Part shown: positions 2,652-47,204 of the stretch, piece by piece | Layout of the letters: each line of letters begins with the position of its first letter | Position numbering within the stretch: the first letter of the stretch is position 1 | Origin: an uncultured Desulfurococcales archaeon | GTDB taxonomy: Archaea; Thermoproteota; Thermoprotei_A; EX4484-217-1 | Direction: 5' to 3' | Assembly (NCBI GenBank): GCA_964406965.1 | Contig: CAYOTT010000001.1 | Coordinates: forward strand, 65,699-129,698 | Length of the DNA: 64,000 nucleotides | Program-made: the position numbers and the translations under genes | Notes under the pieces: generated by a model | Database searches by the model: none | What the model saw: only the letters and a program-made list of their open reading frames with translations | What the model was told of the DNA's origin: nothing

Positions 2652-2658
2652 TACAGCA

Positions 2659-4549: not shown

Positions 4550-4610
4550 TAATGTTTAGCCTCCTTAAAGAAATTTAAAATTCTATCTTAAAAATTTATA
4601 ACACACTATT

Positions 4611-5030
4611 TCAATCGTCTGCAGAGGGTTTTTGAGATAAAATTATGGGGCTTGACCTATCAGTGTAGTTTACGCTAAAGTTCTTAGGTTTCAATTGCGA
4701 AACTATATATCTAAATGCTTTCCAAGGATCTGTATGTGCACCACATGTATAAACATCTACTGTTGCAAATTTATACTTAGGCCAAGTATGAATTGCTATG
4801 TGGCTTTCAAGAACTAAGCCTATAACACTTACACCTCCCTTGCTTCCACCAAACTTCCACACCTTTAATTCGTAAAGTATGGCGTTTGCTAACTCAGCTG
4901 CTTTTTTAACTATTTCGCTTAATTTTTTCTCATCCGATATGACACTTACATTGCACTCGTAAAGATTCGCATATATGTGTTTACCTACTACTCTATCTTC
5001 CTCAGCAATTTGTTCAGCATATTTTTGCAT
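4611..5030 (-). CDS. speH: Pyruvoyl-dependent S-adenosylmethionine decarboxylase proenzyme family (SpeH-type), paralog 1.
   Basis: GKHIYANLYEC..., FGGSKGGVSV, and [24 protein letters not shown], which carries the E-S self-cleavage site. Confidence 0.8.
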   Translation of the reverse strand: MQKYAEQIAEEDRVVGKHIYANLYECNVSVISDEKKLSEIVKKAAELANAILYELKVWKFGGSKGGVSVIGLVLESHIAIHTWPKYKFATVDVYTCGAHTDPWKAFRYIVSQLKPKNFSVNYTDRSSPIILSQKPSADD

Positions 5031-5143
5031 AGTCTAAATCCTCTTACGTCTTTGTAAGAGTGTTATTGAAGGGGTTTTTAAACATTTAGTACTTGAAAGC
5101 CTTTCAAATAATAAAGAATACGAAATAATTAAGACTTTAAACC

Positions 5144-5965
5144 GTGGTGCTATGTAATATAGCGGGTGCAATTAAAATGTTTACAGCTGAGATAATTAGT
5201 ATAGGTAACGAATTATTGATAGGAAAAACTGTAAATACTAATGCAACATGGTTAGCTAGAAAACTTACACTCTTGGGATTTAGTGTCAGAAGAATAACAA
5301 CAGTGCCTGATGAAATAAGTGAAATAGTTTCAGCAATAAGAGAAGCCATAAGCAGGGGAACTAAAATTATAGTAACAACAGGAGGTCTCGGACCAACATT
5401 CGATGATAAAACAAGCGAAGCCCTCGCAAAGGCTCTTAATAGAAAATGGGTTATAAATAATGAAGCTTTAGAACTGGTCCGTAAAAAATACTCTAGCATG
5501 GGTTTCGAAATAACTGAGCATCGTTTAAAAATGGCTAAAATGCCGGAAAAAGCTAAGCCTATACCAAATCCCATAGGTTCAGCCCCCGGAATACTTGTTG
5601 AAGAAAATAACTCGCTAATTATAGCTCTACCTGGAGTTCCTAAGGAAATGAAAGCTATTTTTGAAGAATACGTTGAATCAATCCTAAAGAAGAAAGGGCC
5701 AAACATAGTTTTCTACGAAGACACCTTGGTACTCAAAGGGATGCCTGAATCCAGTTTAGCACCATTCCTTGAACAAGCCATGAAGAGAACGGTTAAAACA
5801 TATATAAAAAGTCATCCTAAAGGTTCTGAGAGTAAAGAGCCAGTAATAGAGATACACATCACTTCGTCGGGTAAATCGCTTGAAGAAGCAAGGAAGCTAG
5901 TAAATGAGGCAAAGGAAATTATTAAATCTCTTATTAAGGGTAAAGTCGATATTATAGAACACTAA
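5144..5965 (+). CDS. CinA-like / molybdopterin-binding (MoCF_biosynth) domain protein.
   Basis: TTGGLGPTFDDKT and the PGVPKEM motif typical of the CinA N-terminal domain. Confidence 0.7.
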   Translation: MVLCNIAGAIKMFTAEIISIGNELLIGKTVNTNATWLARKLTLLGFSVRRITTVPDEISEIVSAIREAISRGTKIIVTTGGLGPTFDDKTSEALAKALNRKWVINNEALELVRKKYSSMGFEITEHRLKMAKMPEKAKPIPNPIGSAPGILVEENNSLIIALPGVPKEMKAIFEEYVESILKKKGPNIVFYEDTLVLKGMPESSLAPFLEQAMKRTVKTYIKSHPKGSESKEPVIEIHITSSGKSLEEARKLVNEAKEIIKSLIKGKVDIIEH

Positions 5966-7829: not shown

Positions 7830-8552
7830 GCCTTTACAATATCTTCGAAAGCCAAGTGGAGAAGCAGTGAAAGAATAGCTCTTTCGACTCTTGAAAGTTT
7901 AGGGTATAGAATAGTCGATATTCATAGGAAAGTTACTTTAAAAGGTATAGACGTTGCTGAAGTAGATGCTATAGCTGAAGATCCTAACGGAATTAAATAT
8001 GCCGTAGAAATAAAAGCTGGTAGACTTGATGTTTCAGGTGTAAGGCAAGCATATATTAATGCGAAACTTTTAGGTTTAAAACCTCTTGTAATATGTAAGG
8101 GCTTTGTTGATGAAGCTGCAAAGGCTACTGCTGAAGAATTAGGCGTAAAGGTAATCGAATTAAGTGATCAATTCCTTGTAGATTCCGAGGAATTAGAGAT
8201 TATTGTAAGGGAATCTGTGGAGACAATTATTGACGATTATCTAGCTTCCTTACTAACACCTCCACCTATTCTCGAAGATAGCGATGTAAAAGTTTTAAAA
8301 GCTATAGCTGAAAACCCAACATTAGCCGATGCTGCTGAAAGTTTAAACCTTGACCTTACACAATTTCTGGAAAAAATAAATGTACTTAAGAGAAAAAATA
8401 TTCTTCCAAAAACTAGAAATTATAGAGCTTTAAGGAGAAGAGCCAAAATACTACTTTACAAACTCTTATTTGAAAAAAGAACTAGTGAAGTCCTAAATAA
8501 GCTCGAAGAGGCAATAAATGAAATAAGATCTTTACGTAATTTAGAAAAGTAG
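7830..8552 (+). CDS. PD-(D/E)xK nuclease-like domain fused to a C-terminal winged-HTH. The reading frame is open from 7830, but the first in-frame canonical start is the GTG at 8217. Possible frameshift or pseudogene.
   Basis: In-frame translation upstream of the tracked ORF 8217..8552 reads ...RIVDIHRKVTLKGIDVAEVDAIAEDPNGIKYAVEIKAGRLDVSGVRQAY... (D...EVD...E.K nuclease motif). There is no ATG/GTG/TTG in frame between 7830 and 8217. A GTG at 7823 sits in another frame and terminates at 7868..7870. Confidence 0.45.
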   Translation, partial: AFTISSKAKWRSSERIALSTLESLGYRIVDIHRKVTLKGIDVAEVDAIAEDPNGIKYAVEIKAGRLDVSGVRQAYINAKLLGLKPLVICKGFVDEAAKATAEELGVKVIELSDQFLVDSEELEIIVRESVETIIDDYLASLLTPPPILEDSDVKVLKAIAENPTLADAAESLNLDLTQFLEKINVLKRKNILPKTRNYRALRRRAKILLYKLLFEKRTSEVLNKLEEAINEIRSLRNLEK

Positions 8553-8559
8553 TGTTACA

Positions 8560-9438
8560 ATGTTCCTAGAAGTTTACGAGTTTCATTATAAACAAGTCCC
8601 CCTACTGGCGGGAGCAGCACTCAAGAAGCTAAGTCATGTAAGTAGCTTTGAAACCTACATATCATTAGATCTAGGTCTTTCTCTTTCACGAGTAACTATA
8701 GATGAAACCTGCATTATTTTAGAAGACTACGGGATAAAGCTTCCACTAAGTAAAATATTAGAAAGTAAGGTGAAAGAAAACTCAGTATATGCAATAATAA
8801 ATGAAAACATACAAGAGCTATCGCTAATAACAAAAAACAAATACTATAAGCTTAAGGCACCTTACCTCAATAAAGCACCAACATTGGAAATTAGCGGAAT
8901 ACATATGCATAGAATTAAAGGTATCGACCCTTGGAAGGACTCGTTACTAAAGGTCAAAAAAGCGCGCATTAAAAAAGGAAGCATTGTTTTAGATACATGC
9001 ACTGGTTTGGGATATACAGCTATAGGTGCTTTAAGGTTTGGAGCAAAACATGTTTTTACCGTTGAAAATGATGAAAATGTGTTAGCGCTTAGCCAATATA
9101 ATCCTTGGTCTAAGTTTCTTGAAGACAATAGAATAACCGTACTTTTAGGTGACGTTTTTGAAGTAATTGATTTCTTCCAGGACGGAGTATTTGATAGAAT
9201 AATTCATGACCCCCCAAGATTTTCGCTTGCAGGCCACCTCTACAGTAGAGAATTCTATAGGAAGCTTTACCAGAAACTCAAACCAGGTGGAATACTTTTT
9301 CACTACATAGGTTCACCAGGTCAGAGACGTAGGGTAAATATGGTAAAAGGTGTTATGAATAGACTTAGAGAAGTAGGTTTCTACGTAAAAACAGAACCTA
9401 AAGCCCAAGGGGTTATTGCTTTTAAGCCAAGAATTTAA
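8560..9438 (+). CDS. SAM-dependent methyltransferase with a DPP(R/F) motif (RsmD/N6-N4 amino-methyltransferase-like).
   Basis: Motif I VLDTCTGLGYTA; motif IV DPPRF; order I then IV. Confidence 0.65.
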   Translation: MFLEVYEFHYKQVPLLAGAALKKLSHVSSFETYISLDLGLSLSRVTIDETCIILEDYGIKLPLSKILESKVKENSVYAIINENIQELSLITKNKYYKLKAPYLNKAPTLEISGIHMHRIKGIDPWKDSLLKVKKARIKKGSIVLDTCTGLGYTAIGALRFGAKHVFTVENDENVLALSQYNPWSKFLEDNRITVLLGDVFEVIDFFQDGVFDRIIHDPPRFSLAGHLYSREFYRKLYQKLKPGGILFHYIGSPGQRRRVNMVKGVMNRLREVGFYVKTEPKAQGVIAFKPRI

Positions 9439-35152: not shown

Positions 35153-36994
35153 TTACTTTTTTATTTGTTTCTCTTGTGTCTCCATGGGTTCGGGCCTTAT
35201 TTTAACCCATAATGGCCGTGGGTCTCCGATTACTCGAATAAGGACCTCTCCTGTTCTTAACCATGTCATTCTCTCTTTTTCTGCCTCATTTAGTTTCATA
35301 AACTTACTTACGCTTTCAATATAATCTTTGCTATTTGACCCGAAAACGGCGATTGTTCCAGCATTATCTAGGATTTCCTTTGGAAAATCAGTTATATCTT
35401 GGGAAGCTAAAGCTACTGCGAGTCCGTAGCCTCGTCCCTCCTTTACCAGGGACTTAATAATTTTTGTCCCAGAACGTGTATCCATAAAGCGCCATGCTTC
35501 ATCAAGTATTACTAAGCAACGTATAGTATTTGTTGGCGTTAGCGTTAAAATATAGTTAGCTAAGATCTGAAGTAATGCTAGAGTGTATAATTTACGGTAC
35601 TCCTCAGGCAGCCTATGTAAAAGAAATATTAGAGGCTTCTTAAAGTTAAGAGTATATACGTTACCGTTGAAGAATATCTTTGATCTTAAAGACTCAAGCT
35701 TTGTTAGTAAACTAAACTCAACATCCTTATCACCATAATTCTTAGAGACTTCGGCAACTGTTGATATTAAGTATTTGAAGCTGGGATTATTTGTTGATTC
35801 ATACGTTTTTATAAGTGACATGTATAGTAGATATTCCTCCTTGGAAGTTAATGATGATGCGCTTTTAATAAGCTCAATTATTTGCTTCGCTCTTATTCTA
35901 GGGCTTGTAAACCATGTGTATAATATGTTAACATTGTTTCTTTCAGGATCTATTATTTCAAAAGCACCTGTAGACTTTAAACCGATAAATTCCCCCCTCA
36001 AGTCGAAAATCCATACTGGAATTTCATATTCCTCAATAGCCCTTTTCGCTATTGTGTAAAGGAATGTTGTCTTACCCCTACCTGTAGGCCCTACTATCAC
36101 TATATGTTTAGTTAAGTACTTTTCGAAATCATAAAAGACCGGTGTACCATAGTCTATGTCTTCACCCAAATAAATACCCTTACCGGAAATCTTAGGTCTT
36201 TTAACATATCCTATGGGCATCATGAAGCCTATGTCAGACTCCAACATAATCTTATGTTTAGTTTCTTTAAGAACGCCTAAACTTATTGCTTCTAAAACTT
36301 CATCTTCAGTTGCTTTTCTAACTTCAAAACCCATTGAGGCTTTAAATGACGTTATCACTGTACGTGCTCTTTCCTGAATAGCCTTCATTAACCCCTTTTC
36401 CGACGAAGCATGTGCTTTAACTATTATGTAGTACTTTATACTAATGGGTTTTTCACCCTTAACTATCCTATCATATATTTTTTCTAATCTTCTAAGTTTC
36501 TTTAAAATCTGAGGATTTGCGGGATCTGTTGTAACCATTATCTTATAATTTATAAGTTGTCTTTCTAAGTTCTTCACATATGATGTTGCATTTGCTTTTT
36601 TCTTCAGTAAAACTATTGAAACATCATTTTCGGTTGCTGTAATAAATCCTGTAAAGGATTTAATTTGTTGTATAAGGAAATCCGAAGCCACATCTTTGTA
36701 ACTATAAGGAACATCATCAACCACATATACTGCTAAGCCACTTATGATTTTATCCTTTTTCACAACTAAGATGTTACCTTTAACCACAATATTTGCTTCA
36801 CTAAACTCTAGTTTACGAGGCATTATTTTTGATGAAAGCTTTGGAAAAATCAGTGGTATGTTATAAGCGAAGATGAACAATAAGAACAAGATTATGTAAT
36901 GTTCTAATGCAACAAAATCCCTCAAGAAAACATAAGCTAAAACAAACGCTCCAATAACAATTATGAGCACTGGTATTTTTTCATTATACTCCAT
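35153..36994 (-). CDS. Membrane-anchored VirB4/TrbE-like AAA ATPase (CedB-like).
   Basis: Two N-terminal TM helices; Walker A GPTGRGKTT; Walker B ILDEAWRF (the DEAW of VirB4); GRGYGLAVALASQ. Confidence 0.6.
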   Translation of the reverse strand: MEYNEKIPVLIIVIGAFVLAYVFLRDFVALEHYIILFLLFIFAYNIPLIFPKLSSKIMPRKLEFSEANIVVKGNILVVKKDKIISGLAVYVVDDVPYSYKDVASDFLIQQIKSFTGFITATENDVSIVLLKKKANATSYVKNLERQLINYKIMVTTDPANPQILKKLRRLEKIYDRIVKGEKPISIKYYIIVKAHASSEKGLMKAIQERARTVITSFKASMGFEVRKATEDEVLEAISLGVLKETKHKIMLESDIGFMMPIGYVKRPKISGKGIYLGEDIDYGTPVFYDFEKYLTKHIVIVGPTGRGKTTFLYTIAKRAIEEYEIPVWIFDLRGEFIGLKSTGAFEIIDPERNNVNILYTWFTSPRIRAKQIIELIKSASSLTSKEEYLLYMSLIKTYESTNNPSFKYLISTVAEVSKNYGDKDVEFSLLTKLESLRSKIFFNGNVYTLNFKKPLIFLLHRLPEEYRKLYTLALLQILANYILTLTPTNTIRCLVILDEAWRFMDTRSGTKIIKSLVKEGRGYGLAVALASQDITDFPKEILDNAGTIAVFGSNSKDYIESVSKFMKLNEAEKERMTWLRTGEVLIRVIGDPRPLWVKIRPEPMETQEKQIKK

Positions 36995-37003
36995 AGCTTA
37001 CAC

Positions 37004-37186
37004 CTATTTTAAAATGCCCCTGTAATATATGATGAGTGTAATCGTAGGGATTATGATAAGCATTACTAGTAAAATAGTTAGCATGATATTCAAGTTGGCA
37101 CTATTCTTTACGATAATGTAAGTTACGTAAAGTACGTTAATTAAGTATAGTATTAGCATTGTTTTAAAATTAAAAGGATTCACCAT
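37004..37186 (-). CDS. Small two-TM membrane protein (CedA1/A2-like).
   Basis: 60 aa, two hydrophobic helices, tightly packed between the neighbouring genes. Confidence 0.4.
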   Translation of the reverse strand: MVNPFNFKTMLILYLINVLYVTYIIVKNSANLNIMLTILLVMLIIIPTITLIIYYRGILK

Positions 37187-37194
37187 TAACCACC

Positions 37195-38643
37195 TTACAC
37201 TCTATCTCTTATCGGTAAACGTAATTTTCTACCTCCAAGAGTATATGCGAAAGAGTAAGTTATCGAAACAAGAATCGTTAAATAAGTTACAGGTAATATT
37301 ATCCATTGAAAGAACACTTTACCTATGGCTTCACCTAAATTTTGAACATTAATATTAGAGTTTAAAGAGTTATCTATACCGCTAAAATACCCTTTATCTA
37401 CGAGTTGAATACTTTCTTTACCAACTACAACATAGGATACCTCTATAACCGTAGATCCTTTAGGTAAGTGGAAGCTTATGGTTGAAACATTTACATTGTT
37501 CCAAGTATAGCTTCTACTGGTAAATTTAATTTCATCATTGTTCACCTTCAACTTTGTTAATTTCGCAGCTTTAGGGATGTAGGCGATTACTGCTTCTTGT
37601 GGTTCATTCAAAACTATATTAAGAACGTACGTGTTTCCTTGTTCATAGACTTCAGCATTATTTACTTCATTCTGTAATATTAAAAGAACTGTATGGCCAA
37701 AATAAATAACATTATTTAGTGTAAAGTCATGTATGTAGTCTGCGTCGGGATCCAAATAGGGATTGTAGAGAAATTCGTTCATAGATATGTTCATAGAGCT
37801 TATGCTAATACCTAAGTAGCTGAGCTTAACGTAAAATCCGTTTACTTTTGCAGGTAATCCTCCAAAGGGTCTTCCAGCATTATAAAAGCCATTTTCGTCA
37901 GTATAGTATATAGCTATAGGATCTATGCTACTTTCTTTAAGAAACCATTCCGTTTTAATATACGGTATAGGCTTCCCCATAATATCTTTAACTAATCCCT
38001 TAGCAAAAAATACTCCAAGATCCTCCCTAGGCTTAAGTGAACTACTTATACTCGTATTTGAAAGGGGATTATCTCCGCCTACACTCATAACATTTACAAA
38101 TGTTGGAAGAAGCGGGAGAGCTATTGTGAAAACTATAGACATAGCTATTAATGATGCCCCTGCGCTTCTAGCTAATCTAAATGGTACTGCATAAAGTAGT
38201 ATTCCGAAGGCAAGTATTTTTGCAAAATACCCTTTAAACACTAATCCTAAAACAAAGAAAAACTCCATAACTATAAGCGTATATGTAGCTATACTAGTTA
38301 TTGGTCCTAAGAAAGATGCAACTAAAGCTCTTCCTCCAGCTTGAGATATAGCTAAAGAAATACTTATTAGCAGTGAAATAAATGAACCTAAAATAGCTAT
38401 TCTTTCAATAAGCCAGTTAAAGTAAAGGTTCCAACTAACTCCCAAAATACCTCCAAAATAGGATGTAGCTTCAATTATCGATGTAAACAATAAAACTAAA
38501 ATCGTTACTGCAAACGAATCGTAAATTAAAGTCGGCGCCCATTTCTTAATGCTCCAAACAGGTATAGGTAACAAGTATATAAGTACACCTAGGTAGTAAG
38601 TTAGTATAGCTAATGAATAGGCGATTATTAGAAACTCGTCCAT
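37195..38643 (-). CDS. Polytopic membrane protein with a large extracytoplasmic domain (CedA-like candidate).
   Basis: About 6 N-terminal TM helices, a soluble domain of about 240 aa rich in Asn/Tyr, and a C-terminal TM. Confidence 0.45.
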   Translation of the reverse strand: MDEFLIIAYSLAILTYYLGVLIYLLPIPVWSIKKWAPTLIYDSFAVTILVLLFTSIIEATSYFGGILGVSWNLYFNWLIERIAILGSFISLLISISLAISQAGGRALVASFLGPITSIATYTLIVMEFFFVLGLVFKGYFAKILAFGILLYAVPFRLARSAGASLIAMSIVFTIALPLLPTFVNVMSVGGDNPLSNTSISSSLKPREDLGVFFAKGLVKDIMGKPIPYIKTEWFLKESSIDPIAIYYTDENGFYNAGRPFGGLPAKVNGFYVKLSYLGISISSMNISMNEFLYNPYLDPDADYIHDFTLNNVIYFGHTVLLILQNEVNNAEVYEQGNTYVLNIVLNEPQEAVIAYIPKAAKLTKLKVNNDEIKFTSRSYTWNNVNVSTISFHLPKGSTVIEVSYVVVGKESIQLVDKGYFSGIDNSLNSNINVQNLGEAIGKVFFQWIILPVTYLTILVSITYSFAYTLGGRKLRLPIRDRV

Positions 38644-38677
38644 TACTTAACCCTTATAGTACCACTCATTATATTGA

Positions 38678-38992
38678 CTAAGTTGATGAGGCTATGTACT
38701 TTATTAAAGCAAAAATGCTTGTTCCTACAGCTAGCCAGAATGCACCTAAAATAGCATCTTCAACTATGTCCTGTCCAAACCTTTTTACTCTATATATTGG
38801 AATAGGTGAGCCCTTTAGAAGCCACCCAATGGCCCATGAAAGCATGAAGAGAGCCCATGCTGCAATAACTACTCTGTTAGTTAAATCATTGATTAGCGCT
38901 TCTATATCCACAACTATCCCCCCTAAGAATATATTGCTTTTTAAAAGGCTTTTTTGGGCTTTTAAAAAGCAATTATTTAAGATGATTCTCAA
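38678..38992 (-). CDS. Small membrane protein.
   Basis: 104 aa, two or three hydrophobic helices. Confidence 0.4.
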   Translation of the reverse strand: MRIILNNCFLKAQKSLLKSNIFLGGIVVDIEALINDLTNRVVIAAWALFMLSWAIGWLLKGSPIPIYRVKRFGQDIVEDAILGAFWLAVGTSIFALIKYIASST

Positions 38993-39029: not shown

Positions 39030-39278
39030 GTGATAATTCTTTTGAGTGTATTATGTCTTAACGATACAGTTGTTGTGACTTTTAAAGTAAGACGTGAACT
39101 TCTCGATAGACTTGATGAATTAGTAAAGAATGGATACTTTTCCAGTAGAAGTGAAGCAATAAGAACAGCAATAATAATGTTAATAAATAGTTATAGTAAA
39201 GGAGAAGGAAATGGGGAAAAACTTAGTAAAAGAAATTTAAAGGAGATTTTTGGTCCTAGACTTACTGTTTTAGGCTAA
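39030..39278 (+). CDS. Ribbon-helix-helix (CopG-like) protein; the true start is probably internal (GTG near 39075).
   Basis: VVVTFKVRRELLDRLDELVKNGYFSSRSEAIRTAIIMLI, paralogous to the product of 14519..14680. Confidence 0.5.
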   Translation: MIILLSVLCLNDTVVVTFKVRRELLDRLDELVKNGYFSSRSEAIRTAIIMLINSYSKGEGNGEKLSKRNLKEIFGPRLTVLG

Positions 39279-39471
39279 TAATTTTCCCTCTAAAGGCAAT
39301 TTTAATCCTACTTAAGCTTGGTCTCTCCAATTTTGCGTTACACTTCGGACACACTCCACTATACCAGTTCATAATTTCGCTAGGTGTAGGTAAACCATAG
39401 TAATCTTGACCTACACGTTCAAACCTATATAATTCAAAACCACAGTTTTTACAGACATATATTACAGGCAT
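39262..39471 (-). CDS. Zinc-ribbon protein.
   Basis: CKNC...CPKC within 69 aa. Confidence 0.45.
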   Translation of the reverse strand: MPVIYVCKNCGFELYRFERVGQDYYGLPTPSEIMNWYSGVCPKCNAKLERPSLSRIKIAFRGKIISLKQ

Positions 39472-39492
39472 TCTTAATACACACCTACATGG

Positions 39493-39504
39493 GTAATACC
39501 GACG
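39493..39504. repeat. Direct repeat GTAATACCGACG, copy 1.
   Basis: Exact 12-mer also present at 39629..39640 in the same divergent intergenic region. Confidence 0.5.
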
Positions 39505-39628
39505 TCAAGCAAAAATATGTAGAAAAAAGTATTTACCATCTACTCCTAAGTAATACCCAACAATTTCTTTAAATAATTATTTAAAAATATCAAGAAATTA
39601 TAGTCATAATTTTTAATCAAATATTTAA

Positions 39629-39640
39629 GTAATACCGACG
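39629..39640. repeat. Direct repeat GTAATACCGACG, copy 2.
   Basis: Exact 12-mer repeat of 39493..39504. Confidence 0.5.
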
Positions 39641-39744
39641 GTTAAAAATATATAATTGTTTTATTTGCTTAACTAGTGCATCGTATATGTAAAACGCTAA
39701 ACAGTAATGTAATTTAACTATGTCTTATATATTACATATCATTA

Positions 39745-40464
39745 GTGATCAAAATGGCTTATATTTCTAAGAAGGCGAAAATAGGGGAGAAAGTTGCCGT
39801 TGAAGGAAACGTTATAGTGCTAGGACGCTCCATTATTAAGGACAACACTATATTAGGCCTTGGAGTTATAGTGGGCTATCCTACTAAAGCTAAAATACTT
39901 AAAGTAATGAGTAATAAAGGGAATATAAGTTTTAAGACCTATGATGAAATAAGTTCTGGAGCAACAATAGGAGCAAACTGCATTATCAGGTCGAACAGCA
40001 TATTATATGAAAACACTTTCATAGACAACAATGTTGAAACAGGACACAATGTCTTAATAAGAGAAAATACAAGGATTGGTGAAAACACTAAAATAGGGAC
40101 TGGAACAATAATTGACGGCCACGTTTTAATAGGTAGAAATGTCAGTATTCAATCATCAGTTTATATTCCTCCTGAAACAATAGTTGGAAACAACGTATTC
40201 ATTGGGCCTCGGGTTATAATAACTAACGATAAGTATCCGCCAAGTAGACGTTTAGTAGGCGTTAAAATATGTGATGGAGCAGTAATAGGGGCAAATGCGA
40301 CATTAATTGCAGGAATAGAAGTAGGTGAAAAAGCAGTAGTAGCTGCAGGAGCCGTAGTTGCAAAAAACGTACCACCTCATACAGTAGTTGCTGGTGTACC
40401 AGCAAAAATTATAGGTACCTACGAAGACTATGTGAAAAAGAGAGAAAAGTATGAAAAAGAGTAA
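39745..40464 (+). CDS. Hexapeptide-repeat (left-handed beta-helix) acyl/acetyltransferase.
   Basis: Repeated [LIV]G.... hexapeptides throughout. Confidence 0.8.
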   Translation: MIKMAYISKKAKIGEKVAVEGNVIVLGRSIIKDNTILGLGVIVGYPTKAKILKVMSNKGNISFKTYDEISSGATIGANCIIRSNSILYENTFIDNNVETGHNVLIRENTRIGENTKIGTGTIIDGHVLIGRNVSIQSSVYIPPETIVGNNVFIGPRVIITNDKYPPSRRLVGVKICDGAVIGANATLIAGIEVGEKAVVAAGAVVAKNVPPHTVVAGVPAKIIGTYEDYVKKREKYEKE

Positions 40465-40470
40465 GAAACC

Positions 40471-42504
40471 ATGCTGAAAAAGCATTGGCCAAAAATAGCT
40501 AAAGTATTTTGGTGTCCGAACTGCAATATTCCACTCATCAGTAGTAAATGCTACAAATGTGGAGGTGAAGGTATAGAAGTTAAACTTAGAGAACCAGCAG
40601 ATGCAAGAATAGCCTTCCCAAGAGATATAGAAACAGTAAAGGAAGCGTTTAAAGAAAAATTTGGTACAGAGAAAGGTTTTGAAAAGATAGCTAATTCCTC
40701 AAAAATAATTTTACTAAATAAAACAACCCACATAGATGATGCTAAAGAAATGGTAATTAATGGCAATAACGTTGGAATTCTACTGTTTAATCCCTTCACT
40801 TCAAAGTGGGGGTTTAGACCATCATATTATGGCTCTCTCAAAATATTGGAAGAAAACGAAGTGGAAACAGTAGCTGTTAGAGGCAATATTAAAGAGAACG
40901 AAGTATTGCCCTTCAGAAAACAAAGCATAAATGAGAACCAGTATGTTATCATAACAAATCTTAATGGAGAACCATTAGGTTTAGGTGCTGTACTCCGAAA
41001 CGGAAAAATTCGGGTAATTAAGAAGTATAGACAGAAGTTTATTTATGAAACATCAGAAAAATCAGCAACAATAAATGAGGTAATTAAGGGAAACATTGAT
41101 AAATTAGAGAGACAAGTTGAAGAAGCAAAAACCTTTCTTAAAAAAATGAATTCAAAAGCAAGGACGCCTGTTGTTGTCTCGTTCTCAGGGGGTAAAGATA
41201 GTTTAGTATCACTTCACTTAGCACTAAATAGCGTTAGCGAAATAACGTTGCTTTTCAATAATACAGGTATAGAGCTTCCAGAAACTTTAGAGACGGTTTT
41301 AAAAGTTTCTGAAGAATACGGATTAAAGCTTGAAATAGCTGATGCGAAAAACGCTTTTTGGGAATCTGTGAATGTTTTTGGACCGCCAGCAAGAGACTAT
41401 AGATGGTGCTGTAAAGTTGCAAAACTTGTTCCTTTAGCTAAGAAAATGCTTAAAAAATGGCCCTCTGGCGCGTTAAACATTGTTGGTCAAAGAGCATACG
41501 AGTCCCTCGAAAGAGCTAAGAGTACTAGAATTTGGCGTAACAAATGGGTTCCCATGGTAATAAGTGTCTCACCTATACAGTATTGGAGCCAGCTTTCAAT
41601 ATGGCTTTACATATTTAAAGAGAAACTTACCAAACATGTTAACCCATTATACTTTAAAGGTTTTGAAAGAATAGGATGCTTCATGTGCCCCGCCAGTAGA
41701 TTAGCTGAATTTGAAGAGGTTAAGAAAGCCCATCCTAACTTATGGAACAAATGGGAGAATTTCCTTTATAAATGGGCTCAAAGAATAAATGCACCTAAGG
41801 AATGGGTAACGCTGGGCTTATGGAGATGGCTTGGACCTGCAGCACCTAAGAAAGTTCTCTCAAGAAAAACCCAGTTTAATGCTTACGATTGGATTAGCAC
41901 TTATGAAAAATGGGTAGATACAAAGATATATTCATTTGAAAAAGAAGAAAAAGAAGACTCCATCATCGCTAAGGTAAAGTTAAGCAAGAAAATAGACTTA
42001 GATAGAGTCTTAAGAATCCTCACTATTTTGGGAAAAATAGCTAAAAAACATGCTGATGAGGTAATAGTATATAGCGGTGAAACTAAAACCCACTACATTC
42101 TTAGAAGAAGTGGTGAAATACTTGTTAAAACACAAGCTGGCAAGAGATGGGTTGAGGAGTTTTTAGATGCAGTAAAGCTTGCCTATAGAGCACATTACTG
42201 TGTAGAATGTGGTTCTTGCGAAGCCCTTTGTCCCTCTGGAGCGATCAAAGTAATTAATGCGAAACCAATAGTCCAAGAGCTGCTATGCCTTAAATGTAAG
42301 GCATGTAATGATGTGTGCCCTATAGCTGATGTTATGGTGGAGAAGTTGGTTTCAGCTATAATCTTTAATAGATACGATGCATGGAGAAGAAAGACTAAAA
42401 GAAGTAGAGAATACACTGCAAAATTACTTGCAGAATTAATGTTCAAAACAAAGTTTTTCTCTAAACACTTAGCTCTTCCAGAATCTCCTTGTTCTAATAA
42501 ATAA
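40471..42504 (+). CDS. Multidomain protein: N-terminal Zn ribbon, PAPS-reductase-like PP-loop domain, and C-terminal 2x[4Fe-4S] ferredoxin domain.
   Basis: CPNC...CYKC; VVVSFSGGKDS, NNTGIELPET, RDYRWCCK, GQRAYESLER; CVECGSCEALCP and CLKCKACNDVCP. 6 bp downstream of the acyltransferase. Confidence 0.65.
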   Translation: MLKKHWPKIAKVFWCPNCNIPLISSKCYKCGGEGIEVKLREPADARIAFPRDIETVKEAFKEKFGTEKGFEKIANSSKIILLNKTTHIDDAKEMVINGNNVGILLFNPFTSKWGFRPSYYGSLKILEENEVETVAVRGNIKENEVLPFRKQSINENQYVIITNLNGEPLGLGAVLRNGKIRVIKKYRQKFIYETSEKSATINEVIKGNIDKLERQVEEAKTFLKKMNSKARTPVVVSFSGGKDSLVSLHLALNSVSEITLLFNNTGIELPETLETVLKVSEEYGLKLEIADAKNAFWESVNVFGPPARDYRWCCKVAKLVPLAKKMLKKWPSGALNIVGQRAYESLERAKSTRIWRNKWVPMVISVSPIQYWSQLSIWLYIFKEKLTKHVNPLYFKGFERIGCFMCPASRLAEFEEVKKAHPNLWNKWENFLYKWAQRINAPKEWVTLGLWRWLGPAAPKKVLSRKTQFNAYDWISTYEKWVDTKIYSFEKEEKEDSIIAKVKLSKKIDLDRVLRILTILGKIAKKHADEVIVYSGETKTHYILRRSGEILVKTQAGKRWVEEFLDAVKLAYRAHYCVECGSCEALCPSGAIKVINAKPIVQELLCLKCKACNDVCPIADVMVEKLVSAIIFNRYDAWRRKTKRSREYTAKLLAELMFKTKFFSKHLALPESPCSNK

Positions 42505-45303
42505 TGTTTCAGCTTCTATGAGCGCTTTATAGAATTCGCTTTCATTTTCGAAAAACTTTCCAACTATTCTTGCCGCAGTTTTGTATCCCACACCAAATGT
42601 TGATAGAGCAATTATGGCTGGCTTACCAAACCTCAACACAAGATCAGCCTTTAACTTTTCCTCTCTTAACATAGCTTTCTCAGCAAGACTAAGTTTAAGA
42701 TTTCTTAGCATCTTACGCACAATAACTTCTATATCCCTTGATCCTATAGATGTTGTTGTTAAAAAACCTGACCCGCAAATATTACACTTAGGATAGTTCG
42801 GAAGATCGGCGATCCTAACATTGTCCATAACATTACCGCACATCAAACATATAAGCCTAACCCGCTTTTCTACAGCCCTACGCTTAAATAACTCTATTAT
42901 TTCCATTAAGGGAGTGAGTTTTACTGAAACATCATAGTAAGAATAAGCTGTTAATGCTTGCATAGTTAACGGTGAATAGTTCTCTAAGTAAACAAATTTC
43001 ACTTTAACCTTGCCTTTTCTAATTGAGTCAATGAATTTGAAAATAGCATTTAAATCTATTTTATCAACAGCTATTTCATTAAATGCCTCATAACCTATAG
43101 GTGTATCAACATAGTATGCTAAAATGTTTGAAACTTTTTTTACACTAACATCTTTCCTTATAGCTCCAAACCTTTTTGCCACATTATACAAGCGCCATTT
43201 AAATACATTACTTCTCTTAATATTTTCTCTTAGTAAGTACTTTAAATCCTCAACATTAACACTAACTAGGTCGTTAATTACTTCCTCAAAATGCACTATT
43301 GAGTTGCTCATCAGAATTACCCTATATGGGTCGCTTTTGCTTACAACATTTACTCCTCGCTTTCTTAGAAAGTATGTAAGTAGCATCATTAAGCCAAAAT
43401 TTCCTTTACTACCTAGGTGCGAATTTACAATAATATTTTTGCCTCCAATAATTTCAACTATAACCTCTTTATCCGTAGGAATCCACCCCGTTTTAGAATA
43501 ATGTTCCTTAATTTGCTTTCCAATGGAATTTAGAAGAGATTGTGAAGTTGGATATTTTTTAAGGATTGCAAGTCCCTTCTCTATTATTCTACGCTTTAAA
43601 GCACCTACTTCCCTGGAAACTTTATAATCAACAGGTATAAGTTCACCCTCCCATTTAGGAAGGGCGCCCCAAGAATCTTCAGCAGGCTTAACATAAACGT
43701 ACTTTTCATCATAATCTAACGTCTCCCAAACCTTTCCTGAAAGTAAAAATTTAGCTCCTACATTAAGTGATGAAACCACAAAGTCTTCGTCAAGCTGTCC
43801 TATTATAGTATTATCTATAATATTTTTAACTAGAAAATGTCTCGCATCAGGTATCATCGAAACATCATAATAGTAAATCTTAGTTCTCTTAGTTTTTCTC
43901 AGCATTTTTCCATCGAAAGAAATAACACCTATTGTTGAAGCAAAACTTAACGTTTCAATAAGGGTAGCATAGCTTAACTTTCTATAGTAAAAAGACCTCC
44001 TCAATAACTTAAAGACTTCGTCTACGGAGACTTCTCCGTATTCAAGAAGTAACCCGGCAGTTTCATAAACTATAATGTCAAGTGGATTTTCATAAATGCT
44101 TTCACTTTCTAAATTCTTATCAATAACTCTTCTTGCCAGTACAAGAGATTCTAATGCATCATCTACGTTAGCTAAGGCTATAACATACCCTTTTGACTTC
44201 TCAGTTTCTCTATGGCCAGATCTACCTACTCTTTGTAAAAGCTTTATTGCCTGTCTTGGAGAACCGTATTGAATAACTAGATCTACTTCACCTACATCTA
44301 TACCTAATTCTAAAGATGATGTTGCTACCACGTACCTTATAATGCCCCGTTTAAATTCTGATTCAAGAGTTAATCTAACATTTCTTGACAAGCTACCATG
44401 GTGCACTCCTACACTAATATTAAATATTCTCTTTAATCTTGAGGATAAGAGCTCAGCTAAATCTCTCGTGTTAGTGAAAACTATACCTGATTTAGATTTT
44501 TCAAGGATCTCAACTATCCTTCTCAATCTAGCCATGGTGCTAGGCGAGATACCTTCACGTAAAGCAATTATTTCATCTTCACTTGTAGGCTGAGGAACTT
44601 CAACAATAATCTCATATGGCTTCTGATAATATACTTCAACAACTTCAACATATCTAGGTCCCCCTAAAAACCTTTTAGCTGCTTCAACATTTCCTATAAC
44701 CGCCGAAAGCCCTATTCTTTGAAATTCCCTTCCGCAGAGCCTAACAAGTCTTTCCAAAGCTACTGAAAGTATTACACCCCTCTTACTACTCATTAGCTCG
44801 TTTACTTCGTCAACAATAACCCACTTAATATTTTTAAGAACCTTTCTCATAATAGCGTGAACTAGAAGGTAATGAAGGGTTTCAGGAGTTGTTATTAGCA
44901 TATGTGGTGGATTTTCTGCTATCTTTCTTCTAAAATAGTAAGTTGTATCGCCATGTCTTACAGCTATATTTAAACCTATATCTTTAGCTATTTTCCCCAT
45001 TCTTACTAAAATATCTCTATTTAAAGCTCTAAGAGGTGTTATGTAAAGTGCTTGAATTCCACTTGTAAAATTCTTTTCAACAATTTTCGAGTATATGGGG
45101 AATAATGCTGCCTCGGTTTTTCCCGCCCCTGTTGGGGCTACGATTAACGTATTATAACCTTTAAGTATGAGTGGTATAGCTTTACTCTGAACTTTTGTAG
45201 GCTCTAAATACCCATATTTTTGAATAACACTTTTGAGTTTAGGGTTCAGCATGTTAAATACGTTCTTCTCATTTAAAGCGTACTTGTTTTTACTGCCAAG
45301 CAT
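42469..45303 (-). CDS. lhr: Lhr-like large ATP-dependent helicase (DEAD/DEAH box, superfamily 2).
   Basis: Motif I APTGAGKT, DEVNE, helicase C motifs (QRVGRSGHR); about 940 aa. Confidence 0.85.
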   Translation of the reverse strand: MLGSKNKYALNEKNVFNMLNPKLKSVIQKYGYLEPTKVQSKAIPLILKGYNTLIVAPTGAGKTEAALFPIYSKIVEKNFTSGIQALYITPLRALNRDILVRMGKIAKDIGLNIAVRHGDTTYYFRRKIAENPPHMLITTPETLHYLLVHAIMRKVLKNIKWVIVDEVNELMSSKRGVILSVALERLVRLCGREFQRIGLSAVIGNVEAAKRFLGGPRYVEVVEVYYQKPYEIIVEVPQPTSEDEIIALREGISPSTMARLRRIVEILEKSKSGIVFTNTRDLAELLSSRLKRIFNISVGVHHGSLSRNVRLTLESEFKRGIIRYVVATSSLELGIDVGEVDLVIQYGSPRQAIKLLQRVGRSGHRETEKSKGYVIALANVDDALESLVLARRVIDKNLESESIYENPLDIIVYETAGLLLEYGEVSVDEVFKLLRRSFYYRKLSYATLIETLSFASTIGVISFDGKMLRKTKRTKIYYYDVSMIPDARHFLVKNIIDNTIIGQLDEDFVVSSLNVGAKFLLSGKVWETLDYDEKYVYVKPAEDSWGALPKWEGELIPVDYKVSREVGALKRRIIEKGLAILKKYPTSQSLLNSIGKQIKEHYSKTGWIPTDKEVIVEIIGGKNIIVNSHLGSKGNFGLMMLLTYFLRKRGVNVVSKSDPYRVILMSNSIVHFEEVINDLVSVNVEDLKYLLRENIKRSNVFKWRLYNVAKRFGAIRKDVSVKKVSNILAYYVDTPIGYEAFNEIAVDKIDLNAIFKFIDSIRKGKVKVKFVYLENYSPLTMQALTAYSYYDVSVKLTPLMEIIELFKRRAVEKRVRLICLMCGNVMDNVRIADLPNYPKCNICGSGFLTTTSIGSRDIEVIVRKMLRNLKLSLAEKAMLREEKLKADLVLRFGKPAIIALSTFGVGYKTAARIVGKFFENESEFYKALIEAETLFIRTRRFWKS

Positions 45304-45389: not shown

Positions 45390-47204
45390 ATGCGTATTAA
45401 TAAAGTTATCTTAGTAGTAAACTTTGTTTTCATTGTAGCATTATTCTTATTGCTAGCTTTAATAAGTAATGTTGGTTCTTTAATTATAGTACCAATTCTT
45501 TATACGGTGCTAATAATATTCCAACTAATTACAGCTACACTTTTAGAATCTCCAATGCTGGCTTTTATAAACACCTTAGCGTTAACGTTTGGAATGAACA
45601 TTTTAAAGAGGTATGTACTCCTCATAGCGTTTTTAATGAGAAACGCATTACTCTATTATTTAGTTTTCTCAATAGACTCCTTCATAAGAAACCCTATAAC
45701 CTATCTAACTATATTTGCAACTTACATAACATTATATTATTCATGGACCTTCATAGTTAAGAAGGGAGATTCCCTCATAGAAAGTATCAAGAGAAGAAGT
45801 TTTAACATTGAAATAAAGCCTAAGAACGTACTTATAATAATGCTTCTTTCACTACTATTAATAATTTTAAGACCACTAACTTTACTTGACGAAATAATAT
45901 ATTTAACAGGAGTCTTAATTTCCTCATTATTCATACGTGAGCTAAGTCAAATAGCTATTTTATCACCTCTTCTCTCATGGATACTAATACCTTATACAAT
46001 ACATATCCCGCCAAGGGAGGTCTCGAGAGGAAAGAAGTTAGAAATCGTAAGGGAGGGTATTGTCTTAGGAAAACTTATAGCATCATTAACTTATGGTAAA
46101 CCTGTTAATGAATGGTTAAAGGACAGAGTATCAGCAACAAAATCGCCTTCATGGTATTGGCGAATAGAAGATGAAAAGTACGTTTTTAACCCATATGTGC
46201 AGGTTAATTACCATGTATTAATTGCGGGAACTAGCGGCACAGGCAAGTCTAGCTTAGCTAAAAAGCTAGTGAAAGAACTTTACCTTACATGGGGCATTCC
46301 TTCATTAATACTTGATCCTCATAATGAGTACGTGAATTTAATCAAACAACTAAATGGCGTAATTGTGGATGCTTCTAAAATATCAATTAATCCTCTAGAG
46401 CTTGATGGAGCATCACCGAGAGAGAGAACGGTTCAAGTAGCTGATACATTACAAAGAGTTTTTAAGCTAGGAAACCTTCAAAGAACTGTTCTTGAAGACT
46501 TAATTGAAGAAGCTTACGCGGAAAAGGGAATACTAATAGACGATGAAGAATCTTGGAATAATACTCCTCCGACCTTCCAAACATTACTTAGGGTTGTCGA
46601 GAAAAGAATAGAATATGCGAGAACTTCAGCTGAAAGAGCTAGATATGAAAGTTTAAAACCATATTTAAGAACTCTCTCCATCACCATATTTAGAAATACT
46701 ACAATAGAGTTTCAAAAACTCCTTGAAAAACCAAGTGTAATAGCTATGGCTAATTTGCCAGGAGAATACGTTAAATCTATTCTTGCTGAAACTGTTCTTA
46801 GAAAAATAGCTCATAAAATGTACGCTGCTGGTGAGAAGCAAAGACTTCTAAACTATATAGTAATAGATGAGGCGCATAGATTATGCAGGAGAGGAGTTGA
46901 ACCATCGCTTGTAGCAAAGCTAATGATGGAAAGTAGAAAATATGGTATAGGCTTCATAATTATAACTCAGCAACCATTAGACATTGACGAATCCATAGTT
47001 GCAAATGCAGCTACCAAAATATCTTTCAAACTCGCAGAACCGGAGAATTTAGATTATATAGCTAAAACGTTTGCAGGATTCGTTACTGATAATAGATATG
47101 ATATGGTGAGAAAGGCATTATACTATTTACCAATGTTTCATGCCATAATTAAAGATAGTGTAGTGAACGATCCTATCATAGTTAGAATAGATATTTCAAG
47201 TTAA
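45390..47204 (+). CDS. Membrane-anchored HerA/FtsK-superfamily (DUF87-like) ATPase.
   Basis: About 6 N-terminal TM helices; Walker A AGTSGTGKSS; Walker B VIDEAHRL; RKYGIGFIIITQQP. Confidence 0.65.
   Translation: MRINKVILVVNFVFIVALFLLLALISNVGSLIIVPILYTVLIIFQLITATLLESPMLAFINTLALTFGMNILKRYVLLIAFLMRNALLYYLVFSIDSFIRNPITYLTIFATYITLYYSWTFIVKKGDSLIESIKRRSFNIEIKPKNVLIIMLLSLLLIILRPLTLLDEIIYLTGVLISSLFIRELSQIAILSPLLSWILIPYTIHIPPREVSRGKKLEIVREGIVLGKLIASLTYGKPVNEWLKDRVSATKSPSWYWRIEDEKYVFNPYVQVNYHVLIAGTSGTGKSSLAKKLVKELYLTWGIPSLILDPHNEYVNLIKQLNGVIVDASKISINPLELDGASPRERTVQVADTLQRVFKLGNLQRTVLEDLIEEAYAEKGILIDDEESWNNTPPTFQTLLRVVEKRIEYARTSAERARYESLKPYLRTLSITIFRNTTIEFQKLLEKPSVIAMANLPGEYVKSILAETVLRKIAHKMYAAGEKQRLLNYIVIDEAHRLCRRGVEPSLVAKLMMESRKYGIGFIIITQQPLDIDESIVANAATKISFKLAEPENLDYIAKTFAGFVTDNRYDMVRKALYYLPMFHAIIKDSVVNDPIIVRIDISS

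Follow-up and report, generated by a model that had tools for sequence, protein, structure and literature searches.

A widespread archaeal PP-loop and ferredoxin fusion protein labelled as PAPS reductase is a candidate nucleic-acid modification enzyme related to BrxP

What reaction is catalyzed by a 677-residue archaeal protein that joins a PAPS-reductase-like PP-loop core to a ferredoxin domain, and does the acyltransferase gene just upstream take part in it? We refer to the protein as PPfd; it is encoded in a 64,000-nucleotide stretch of DNA from an uncultured Desulfurococcales archaeon, which we call the window. Members of its family are labelled everywhere as ‘PAPS reductase family protein’. 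Both open reading frames, and all the motifs quoted for them in an initial annotation made from the sequence alone, are present exactly where they had been placed. The first, at 39745-40464 on the + strand, encodes 239 aa from a mechanically assigned GTG start at 39745, while the public gene call and homologs begin at ATG 39754 to give 236 aa. PPfd lies at 40471-42504 on the same strand, and the coordinates, read directly, bear out the claimed 6-bp gap. An AT-rich intergenic region of 273 bp holds a TATA-like box, TTATATAT, that is likely the promoter of a leaderless transcript covering both genes. An intergenic repeat, (A/G)GTAATACC(G/C)A, with three copies at 39492-39638, was discarded as it shows no window-wide enrichment and 38 of 100 shuffles reach three matches. 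The neighbors of the gene pair in the window are Ced-like genes, an RHH protein and an Lhr helicase. The features discussed below are as follows.

504-1854, + strand: PP2, PRK08576 family, Toprim-like N-terminal domain and PP-loop core; frameshifted, with the frame change after 1700
39725-39732, + strand: TATA-like box TTATATAT, lying roughly 22-29 nt before ATG 39754, read from the sequence
39754-40464, + strand: left-handed beta-helix N-acetyltransferase of QdtC/WlbB type, 236 aa (Hexapep, PDB matches, public gene call)
40471-42504, + strand: PPfd, 677 aa, Zn-ribbon/PUA/PP-loop/[4Fe-4S]/TBP-like/ferredoxin, NCBIfam PRK13795 member
40507-40566, + strand: N-terminal Zn-ribbon of PPfd, CPNC-x8-CYKC, residues 15-30, read from the sequence
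40693-41040, + strand: predicted PUA domain, residues ~75-190, with preceding pre-PUA helices
41068-41880, + strand: PAPS-reductase-like PP-loop ATP-pyrophosphatase core with SFSGGKDS (235-244), RWCCK (C313, C314) and GCFMCP (C403, C406)
41908-42138, + strand: TBP-like or Mog1-PsbP-like alpha+beta domain, residues ~480-556
42178-42336, + strand: 2x[4Fe-4S] ferredoxin domain, C577/580/583/587 and C606/609/612/616 (Fer4 matches)

The initial annotation had correctly listed a Zn-ribbon, a PP-loop core and a ferredoxin domain in PPfd, and CPNC...CYKC, SFSGGKDS, GQRAYESLER, RWCCK, CVECGSCEALCP and CLKCKACNDVCP were all found again; it had missed the PUA domain and the TBP/Mog1-PsbP-like domain. The PAPS_reduct model PF01507 covers residues 234-408 far beyond chance (4.1e-46), and PPfd has both the PAPS-reductase fold and the SGGxDS motif of PP-loop ATP pyrophosphatases, here as SFSGGKDS. 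Several Fer4 di-cluster models match residues 569-622 (about 1e-5 to 1e-6), the ferredoxin region also resembles the FrhG gamma subunit (9r51, 1.2e-6), and about 55 residues follow it at the C-terminus. The PUA fold is assigned from a predicted structure, with a sequence match that is weak by itself (E=0.008); PUA-like folds are also found in enzymes that do not have RNA as substrate.

To describe conservation we used word- and HMM-derived alignments (A1 and A2). Among 90 homologs collected by word and HMM search, S237, S239, G241, K242, D243 and S244 of the loop are invariant. Also invariant are C313/C314 and C403/C406, which align with the CC...CxxC of 2goy and 7lhr and are predicted to ligate a [4Fe-4S] cluster of the APS-reductase type. 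A separate set of 80 PPfd loci was drawn from species-representative genomes with RWCCK and SGGKDS as scan patterns, so that the presence of these two motifs in 80/80 loci is circular and no independent evidence. A Zn-ribbon of the CPNC...CYKC type, sought with a regular expression, occurs in half of these loci (40/80) and is absent from Desulfurococcaceae-type copies. The ferredoxin cysteines are invariant or nearly so in the homolog alignment and are lost from Desulfurococcus-type copies; thus, any electron-transfer step that depends on them cannot be universal in the family.

PPfd belongs to NCBIfam NF010367 (PRK13795.1-2, ‘hypothetical protein’) by a small margin (459.7 bits, cutoff 456), with residues 8-619 matching profile positions 8-582 of 584, and it falls below the cutoffs of each of the sister models PRK13795.1-1,.1-3 and.1-4. 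Relatives are found in at least 559 archaeal species genomes that span the Thermoproteota, Thermococci, Thermoplasmata, methanogens and Asgard archaea, and PPfd is a single-copy gene across archaeal phyla. In line with the initial annotation, neither PP-loop protein of the window falls into a characterized family with a known substrate, the matched NCBIfam equivalogs being named only ‘hypothetical protein’. We found no paper in the searchable literature with an experimental datum on the PRK13795 family, and PMC2948915 holds nothing on it. The APS and PAPS reductases reported from M. jannaschii may belong to PRK13795, PRK08557 or PRK08576.

If the current label were right, PPfd would be an unusual assimilatory APS or PAPS reductase, fed with electrons by its own ferredoxin domain and not by thioredoxin, and would supply sulfite, for example for cysteine or for sulfated or sulfoquinovose-containing glycans. 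In the HMM check that had been suggested, PPfd and the second PP-loop protein, PP2, both fell well short of the cutoffs for CysH, APS reductase, CysD and DndC. For the CysH family, PPfd scored 81.9 against a cutoff of 154 (PRK02090), 67.3 against 235.3 (TIGR02055), 50.8 against 165.1 (TIGR00434) and 29.5 against 254.2 (TIGR02057). The catalytic cysteine of APS and PAPS reductases, defined by the C-terminal motif ECG[LI]H, forms the S-sulfocysteine intermediate. This motif is missing from PPfd, the alignments with 2goy and 7lhr ending before it; no conserved cysteine lies between C406 and C577 in the 90 homologs, and the next one after C406 appears only in the ferredoxin domain. Where APS reductase has SFSGAED, PPfd carries the ATP-type loop SFSGGKDS; compared with the assimilatory APS reductases (2goy, 7lhr), it also has some 35 extra residues inserted behind CxxC and additional PUA, alpha+beta and ferredoxin domains. 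Moreover, sulfate reduction gives the PUA domain no role, the family occurs in sulfide-dependent anaerobes (Thermococci, methanogens and Asgard archaea), and such genes can be possessed without growth on sulfate, which they do not confer (PMC10322725). We consider a reductase of this kind unlikely. PPfd fails the defining test and, as part of the reading that we tentatively favor, would be neither a PAPS reductase nor an enzyme of sulfate assimilation. The [4Fe-4S]-dependent tRNA thiolases TtuA and NcsA also differ from it: they belong to another PP-loop subfamily (PF01171 type), have other cluster-ligand positions, carry Zn-fingers in place of a PUA domain and lack the ferredoxin domain, and their sequence match to PPfd is not significant (E=0.19).

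The best non-self profile of PPfd is PADLOC BrxP (2.3e-51, 173 bits), with lower scores for CysH PRK02090 (81.9 bits), PADLOC SspD (48) and DndC (about 30-32), of which the SspD and DndC matches are partial; against the DndC model TIGR03183 it reaches 29.1 with a cutoff of 290.4, and these scores place it in neither DndC nor SspD. In BLASTP, residues 197-645 of PPfd align with residues 92-512 of a Methanosphaera BrxP from an annotated BREX-4 locus (E=9e-31, 449 residues, 26% identity). The alignment is collinear through the PP-loop, the CxxC, the middle domain and the ferredoxin motifs, and both proteins share the order SFSGGKDS, RWC..., GCxxCP, a Trp-rich helical insert, an alpha+beta domain (Mog1/PsbP/TBP-like) and CxxCxxCxxxCP. 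PPfd thus shows the BrxP combination of PAPS-reductase, alpha+beta and Cys-rich ferredoxin-like modules, an arrangement described as PAPS-reductase + Mog1/PsbP-like + Fe-S (PMC12839542); BrxP is reported to make DNA phosphorothioate and to contain DUF4007 (PMC12914056). The thiolation or sulfur transfer on a nucleotide-containing substrate that the initial annotation had entertained fits both the profile match and this collinearity.

Nevertheless, PPfd is not simply a BrxP. Its N-terminus carries a Zn-ribbon/PUA module and its C-terminus is devoid of the DUF4007 (SspB-like) domain, the alignment stopping at BrxP residue 512 of 785, and it reads RWCC, with two adjacent cysteines, where the single BrxP examined has RWCT. 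In contrast to the BREX-4 locus compared, its gene is not beside BrxC/pglY, PglZ or BrxL, and its single-copy occurrence across archaeal phyla differs from that of BrxP in sporadic defence islands. When all ORFs near the 80 PPfd loci were clustered against each other, no neighbor common to several phyla emerged. What recurred was either local synteny (Lhr, Ced-like genes, DUF2286 and an RNA methyltransferase), generic ABC ATPases or AOR (5 loci), with no defence-type genes (such as PglZ or BrxL) among these clusters. A role as a defence system was rejected because BREX, Dnd and Ssp partner genes are absent and the distribution is of a housekeeping type.

Our best, though tentative, explanation, in which we place somewhat less than even confidence, is that PPfd is a housekeeping modifier of nucleic acid, probably RNA, that uses ATP and Fe-S clusters, with sulfur insertion as the likeliest chemistry, and that its gene shares a transcript here with that of a glycan enzyme to which it is unrelated. 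The N-terminal Zn-ribbon/PUA module would dock the RNA, and the PP-loop core, at the expense of ATP, would adenylate an oxygen of the target, be it that of a base carbonyl or of a backbone phosphate. Sulfide from the adjacent [4Fe-4S] cluster (C313/C314/C403/C406) might then displace AMP, and the C-terminal 2x[4Fe-4S] ferredoxin domain could pass electrons to or from the core cluster, perhaps so that a persulfide donor is reduced. This unit of PP-loop, alpha+beta and ferredoxin domains is the one that BrxP and some SspD enzymes use in DNA phosphorothioation. Domain layout, family membership, conserved ligands, distribution and patchy adjacency are observed, whereas the substrate, sulfur as the atom put in and the part played by the ferredoxin are inferred. 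Counting against this explanation, PPfd has no conserved neighbor of the cysteine desulfurase or sulfur-carrier type.

It is possible, if doubtful, that PPfd adenylates its target and inserts no sulfur. Its reaction, in analogy to FAD synthetase, QueC, TilS or nitrile synthetases, might then be a reduction driven by ferredoxin, or the transfer of an adenylyl or amido group, with RNA or a small molecule as substrate. Against this, the nearest family with a known reaction, as judged by profile score and collinear architecture, is the sulfur-inserting BrxP. The clusters of TtuA, NcsA, LarE and APS reductase act in sulfur chemistry, and active-site [4Fe-4S] clusters in PP-loop enzymes have so far been linked to it. 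Taken further, the sulfur-insertion reading would make PPfd the cellular, housekeeping counterpart of BrxP, SspD and DndC, an RNA-directed, ATP- and Fe-S-dependent enzyme for a so far unassigned thio-modification of archaeal tRNA or rRNA, at its boldest a backbone phosphorothioate, from which DNA-phosphorothioation defence was recruited and of which PP2 would be a second example; we offer this as speculation and hold it to be rather improbable. Earlier claims of natural RNA phosphorothioates were shown to be artefacts (PMC8597057), a point against the explanation that we favor.

The upstream gene encodes a predicted glycan-synthesis enzyme, a nucleotide-3-amino-sugar N-acetyltransferase of the QdtC/WlbB (WbpD-type) group. 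Hexapep matches it in four stretches (1.4e-27), residues 4-224 align with residues 8-222 of QdtC 3fs8 over the full length (E=3e-40), and WlbB 3mqg matches at 8e-18; it misses all NCBIfam equivalog cutoffs. In Hyperthermus butylicus, its ortholog comes after the genes for a DegT aminotransferase and a Gfo/Idh/MocA oxidoreductase in one operon, an order that we take to be the classic WbpE/WbpB/WbpD arrangement.

The initial annotation had linked PPfd and the acyltransferase to a common pathway for a nucleotide or sugar-nucleotide, in which, for instance, adenylation or thiolation would precede acylation. Apart from the 6-bp gap here, the pair has overlapping starts in L002, L022, L026 and L033 and lies side by side in L001, L093 and L095, among PPfd orthologs only 38-68% identical. 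This overlap persists across orthologs only 38-43% identical, which is more than pure chance synteny would predict and counts against the two genes being unrelated. However, all these cases, 5 of the 80 PPfd loci and two further relatives, fall in Sulfolobales/Desulfurococcales-type genomes, and the acyltransferase is missing within 6 kb at the other 75 of the 80. Where flanks were inspected, the same local synteny was seen (L001, L093 and L095; in part L002, L022, L026 and L033), with both genes inside one conserved Ced-...-Lhr block. The acyltransferase is also conserved at 50-67% identity where it is located elsewhere, as in the Hyperthermus operon and, amid unrelated genes, in Vulcanisaeta, Korarchaeota and Methanomethylicota, and no DegT or Gfo partner gene lies within the 64-kb window. 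Functional coupling is thus not backed, and we regard a shared pathway as highly improbable; the acyltransferase would simply share a promoter with PPfd in this lineage, as a separate enzyme and not a partner. Membership of both PP-loop proteins in a characterized family together with a non-conserved adjacency had been named as what would overturn the original proposal. The adjacency is indeed not conserved; the NCBIfam equivalogs that the two proteins match are named only ‘hypothetical protein’.

PP2, the second PP-loop gene at the window start, had been described as an intact 401-aa paralog at 504-1709. As sequenced, it is frameshifted, its homologs being about 447 aa long: deleting one C at 1700/1701 restores a frame that reads ...ELGFYRIGCYICPALRSWEIMIM...GNNRE, stops at 1854, yields about 447-448 aa and carries a CxxC motif in the restored C-terminus. 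PP2 belongs to NCBIfam NF006351 (PRK08576, ‘hypothetical protein’), where it scores 404.7 bits and the cutoff is 290; owing to the frameshift, the match goes no further than position 392 of the 436 in the profile. In its closest relative, P0123 (87% identical), the SGGKDS region has been lost through an internal deletion. As had been noted earlier, hjc lies beside PP2; it occupies the - strand from 418 and extends past the start of the window. Only the close relative L088 retains this adjacency, which is absent in Staphylothermus and Hyperthermus. Since the N-terminal domain of PP2 is Toprim-like, both paralogs bear modules of a nucleic-acid type, and PP2 is best explained as a second, probably nucleic-acid-directed PP-loop paralog that is frameshifted in this genome.

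For the window, these results call for three corrections of annotation: PPfd should not be called a PAPS reductase, 504-1854 holds a frameshifted paralog, and the acetyltransferase is a predicted glycan enzyme. More broadly, a family found in most archaeal phyla, including the Asgard archaea, is annotated as PAPS reductase yet fails the defining test for one. PPfd carries the catalytic module of the BREX type 4 and Ssp DNA-phosphorothioate writers, joined to a predicted docking domain of RNA type. Knowledge of its reaction could bring to light a new modification of nucleic acids or supply the enzyme for an orphan one, and it could show the origin of the DNA-phosphorothioation enzymes.

PPfd, the 677-aa protein that joins Zn-ribbon, PUA, PP-loop, [4Fe-4S], TBP-like and ferredoxin parts, belongs, as a further member, to a catalogued, uncharacterised, archaea-wide family. 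The initial annotation was right that it is not a textbook enzyme. It passes the cutoff of NCBIfam model NF010367 (PRK13795.1-2; 459.7 bits, cutoff 456), a family named only "hypothetical protein". A protein search gave 1972 significant matches, the best 120 of which cover 87-100% of the query at 38-91% identity, and in a scan with a single genome for each species at least 559 stretches encode a relative. The 80 loci retained come from Sulfolobales/Desulfurococcales, Thermofilales, Thermoproteales, Bathyarchaeia, Nezha- and Brockarchaeota, and from Thermococci, Thermoplasmata, Methanomassiliicoccales, Methanosarcinales and Asgard archaea; because the scan patterns were RWCCK and SGGKDS, the presence of both motifs in these loci is circular. 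Pfam places PAPS_reduct on residues 234-408 (4.1e-46) and several di-cluster Fer4 models on residues 569-622, the C-terminal part being a 2x[4Fe-4S] ferredoxin. A fusion of PUA to an ATPase was reportedly already recognised in the 1999 definition of the PUA domain. Solved structures reach no further than the core (query-normalised TM-score at most 0.25).

Structural relatives of PPfd segments, with scores
Residues about 200-470, PAPS-reductase-like PP-loop core: APS reductases 14.6-15.2, FAD synthase PAPS domain 14.6; further, CysD 13.5, TilS 12.5, TtuA 11.3, NcsA 10.7
Residues about 480-556, TBP-like / Mog1-PsbP-like alpha+beta: PA1624 8.1, TBP 7.5, DcrB 7.3

In five Desulfurococcus-type orthologs (L010, L028, L029, L031 and L036), SGGKDS, RWCC and GCxxCP remain, but both the CxxCxxCxxxC ferredoxin motifs and the N-terminal Zn-ribbon have been lost, so some lineages can do without the ferredoxin clusters.

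We rejected the assignment of PPfd as a (P)APS reductase on profile scores, an ATP-type P-loop and a missing catalytic cysteine. On CysH and APS-/PAPS-reductase models it scores at most about one third of the cutoffs, PRK02090 (81.9 versus 154) apart. Its P-loop, SFSGGKDS, is the ATP-pyrophosphatase signature, with S237, S239, G241, K242, D243 and S244 invariant across 90 homologs, whereas the corresponding residues of Pseudomonas APS reductase read SFSGAED. PPfd shares the four conserved [4Fe-4S] ligands of Fe-S-type APS reductases at homologous positions, RWCC313/314 aligning with ECC and GC403xxC406 with GCxxC. Thiol-dependent (P)APS reductases are defined by a catalytic C-terminal cysteine; the PPfd homolog alignments contain no conserved cysteine between C406 and the ferredoxin domain, so this residue is absent from PPfd.

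Judged by sequence comparison, the closest family with a known reaction is BrxP, the PAPS-reductase-domain protein of BREX type 4. Among PADLOC profiles, PPfd scores 2.3e-51 (173 bits) on BrxP, compared with 48 bits for SspD and about 30 bits for DndC, both DNA-phosphorothioation proteins, and the BrxP score also exceeds that of every CysH-type model. By tblastn of plasmids we found a genuine BrxP on a Methanosphaera plasmid, in a locus annotated as BREX-4 (PAPS-reductase-family protein, 1186-aa protein, "BREX-4 system phosphatase PglZ" and BrxL). Residues 92-512 of this BrxP form a collinear alignment with PPfd residues 197-645 (26% identity, E=9e-31) that takes in SFSGGKDS, RWC and GCxxCP as well as the helical insert, the middle domain and the two ferredoxin motifs. 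BrxP is described as a PAPS reductase with a Mog1p/PsbP-like alpha+beta domain and a Cys-rich [4Fe-4S] ferredoxin-like region (PMC12839542); BREX type 4 systems are reported to make DNA phosphorothioates, and their PAPS-reductase domain is treated as the pyrophosphatase essential for this synthesis (PMC12914056). Unlike BrxP, PPfd carries an N-terminal Zn-ribbon/PUA module but no C-terminal DUF4007 domain; BrxC, PglZ and BrxL are missing from its neighbourhood, and its distribution resembles that of a housekeeping gene.

The ORF list and sequence bear out, as real though incompletely described, the ORF positions of PPfd and of the hexapeptide acetyltransferase (Hexapep, 1.4e-27) encoded directly upstream, together with all motifs that the initial annotation quoted.

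The two-gene unit and its upstream element
39725-39732, TATA-like TTATATAT, within a 273-bp AT-rich spacer
39745-40464, + strand, acetyltransferase ORF, 239 aa (ORF list)
40471-42504, + strand, PPfd ORF, 677 aa (ORF list)

Six bases separate the acetyltransferase stop from the PPfd ATG (GAG TAA gaaacc ATG). The public gene call for this contig starts the acetyltransferase at ATG 39754 (236 aa), which fits the N-termini of homologs and the location of TTATATAT, the putative promoter of the unit. A convergent gene for a 944-aa Lhr-type helicase, 42469-45303 (-), overlaps the 3' end of PPfd by 36 bp, so the transcription unit is most simply the two genes. The motif (A/G)GTAATACC(G/C)A occurs three times in the intergenic region upstream of the acetyltransferase (39492-39638, +). 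Across the window it shows no enrichment (38 of 100 shuffles give 3 matches), but all three copies fall in one 150-bp spacer.

Co-transcription of the two genes here is very probable, but the functional coupling proposed by the initial annotation is wrong or at least unsupported. Overlapping acetyltransferase/PPfd starts that persist across distant orthologs speak for it; yet the acetyltransferase lies directly upstream in only 5 of the 80 PPfd loci (L001, L002, L022, L026 and L033; gaps of 0-22 bp or overlapping), plus two relatives outside that set (L093 and L095), and its orthologs elsewhere sit in a sugar operon or unrelated contexts, which makes coupling highly improbable. L001, L093 and L095 share the window's block (Ced-like genes, RHH, 69-73-aa ORF, acetyltransferase, PPfd, Lhr), in L093 without the Ced-like genes; L002, L022, L026 and L033 have parts of the Ced-like to Lhr block, and other same-order members (for example L015, L019, L020, L028 and L040) keep the block but lack the acetyltransferase. 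The closest solved structure, matched over its full length, is QdtC (3fs8, E=3e-40), a dTDP-3-amino-sugar N-acetyltransferase, followed by WlbB (8e-18); all NCBIfam equivalogs fall under cutoff. Conservation of the family is strong, at 50-67% identity across Thermoproteota, Korarchaeota, Methanomethylicota and a MAG labelled Njordarchaeales (Asgard-related). The Hyperthermus butylicus ortholog follows a DegT aminotransferase and a Gfo/Idh/MocA oxidoreductase, in a WbpE/WbpB/WbpD-like sugar operon, and those of Vulcanisaeta, Korarchaeota and Methanomethylicota have unrelated contexts. The 64-kb window holds no DegT or Gfo homolog.

Other neighbours are of several kinds. The segments 35153-38992 (-) and 45390-47204 (+) resemble a Ced-type locus for crenarchaeal DNA import, with a 613-aa HerA/VirB4-like ATPase (DUF87, AAA_10 and TrwB-like matches) and membrane proteins from a 60-aa ORF, a 104-aa ORF (publicly called as 77 aa) and a 482-aa product; precomputed Pfam assigns PF27251 CedA1 to the 482-aa and 77-aa products. 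Past the Lhr helicase lies another membrane-anchored HerA-like ATPase (604 aa), and parts of the ATPase, membrane protein, PPfd, Lhr, ATPase block recur in about 15-18 Desulfurococcales/Sulfolobales loci. With the PADLOC BrxHI model the helicase (DEAD, Helicase_C, WH_Lhr and DEAD_assoc) gives 5.9e-92, probably reflecting the Lhr family in general, not a BREX system. An 82-aa RHH protein, 39030-39278 (+) (RHH_1, 4e-7; best NCBIfam match the aCcr1 cell-cycle regulator family, 38.8 bits versus a cutoff of 60), is convergent with a 69-aa Zn-ribbon ORF, 39262-39471 (-), that overlaps its 3' end; L001 has matches to both, and in L093 and L095 an RHH protein and a 69-73-aa ORF of like size are called in the same arrangement. 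In seven Desulfurococcales-type loci (L003, L004, L013, L018, L023, L038 and L049), a gene for a small DUF2286 protein (about 110-150 aa, "uncharacterized protein conserved in archaea") is found no more than about 160 bp from PPfd, divergently upstream in some and downstream in others, and an eighth copy lies 2.6 kb downstream in L030.

The second PP-loop paralog reported at 504-1709, here PP2 (PRK08576 family, +), is present but, contrary to the initial annotation, not intact. Its homologs P0121 and P0122 are about 447 aa and 64-66% identical to this ORF, whose NCBIfam match ends at profile position 392 of 436. A single extra C in GGCC causes a frameshift at 1698-1702 (...GAA CTA GGC C TTT TAT AGG ATA GGG TGT TAC ATT TGC CCA...). 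Removing one C at 1700/1701 gives ...ELGFYRIGCYICPALRSWEIMIM...EIGNNRE*, ending at 1854, which agrees with the C-termini of homologs and restores GCxxCP; tblastn with the PPfd core found the shifted segment independently. The nearest relative, P0123 (87% identical), has an internal deletion of roughly 95 residues that takes out the SGGKDS region, and the two lesions suggest that the gene is decaying in this lineage or that the MAG assembly contains errors. The neighbouring hjc was confirmed as divergent, an adjacency kept only in a close relative. On the small Methanobacterium congolense plasmid II (L087), hjc and a 381-aa PAPS-reductase-family gene are about 3 kb apart (4324-4755 and 7911-9056), a resemblance to the hjc-PP2 pairing at the start of the window that is probably coincidental. 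In Hyperthermus butylicus (L090), a PRK08576 ortholog divergently adjoins a third, 405-aa PAPS_reduct/PP-loop paralog (2598-3815 (-), 4001-5419 (+)), so some archaea have three group members, two of them possibly neighbours. Both PPfd and PP2 carry nucleic-acid-type N-terminal modules, which supports a nucleic-acid substrate for the whole group.

In TtuA and NcsA, sulfide supplied by a [4Fe-4S] cluster displaces AMP. By a similar route, the PUA module of PPfd would dock RNA, the PP-loop would adenylate a target oxygen, the adjacent [4Fe-4S] cluster would give sulfide that displaces AMP, and the ferredoxin domain would shuttle electrons. The loss of ferredoxin cysteines and Zn-ribbon in Desulfurococcus-type orthologs weakens this mechanism, as do the lack of a sulfur-donor gene among recurrent neighbours at the 80 loci and of experimental literature on the family in full-text searches. 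A tungsten-type aldehyde:ferredoxin oxidoreductase gene (AFOR_N, AFOR_C, E=1e-139) lies 30-184 bp upstream of PPfd on the same strand in two phyla (L021 and L030 in Thermoproteota; L071, L074 and L080 in Asgard); the PPfd copies there group with their own phyla, so one shared transfer does not explain the arrangement, and the enzyme may act as redox partner of the ferredoxin domain. With BrxP as the nearest family of known reaction, the sulfur-transfer chemistry on a nucleotide-containing substrate that the initial annotation considered is plausible for PPfd, and the point of interest is the PRK13795 family rather than this locus.
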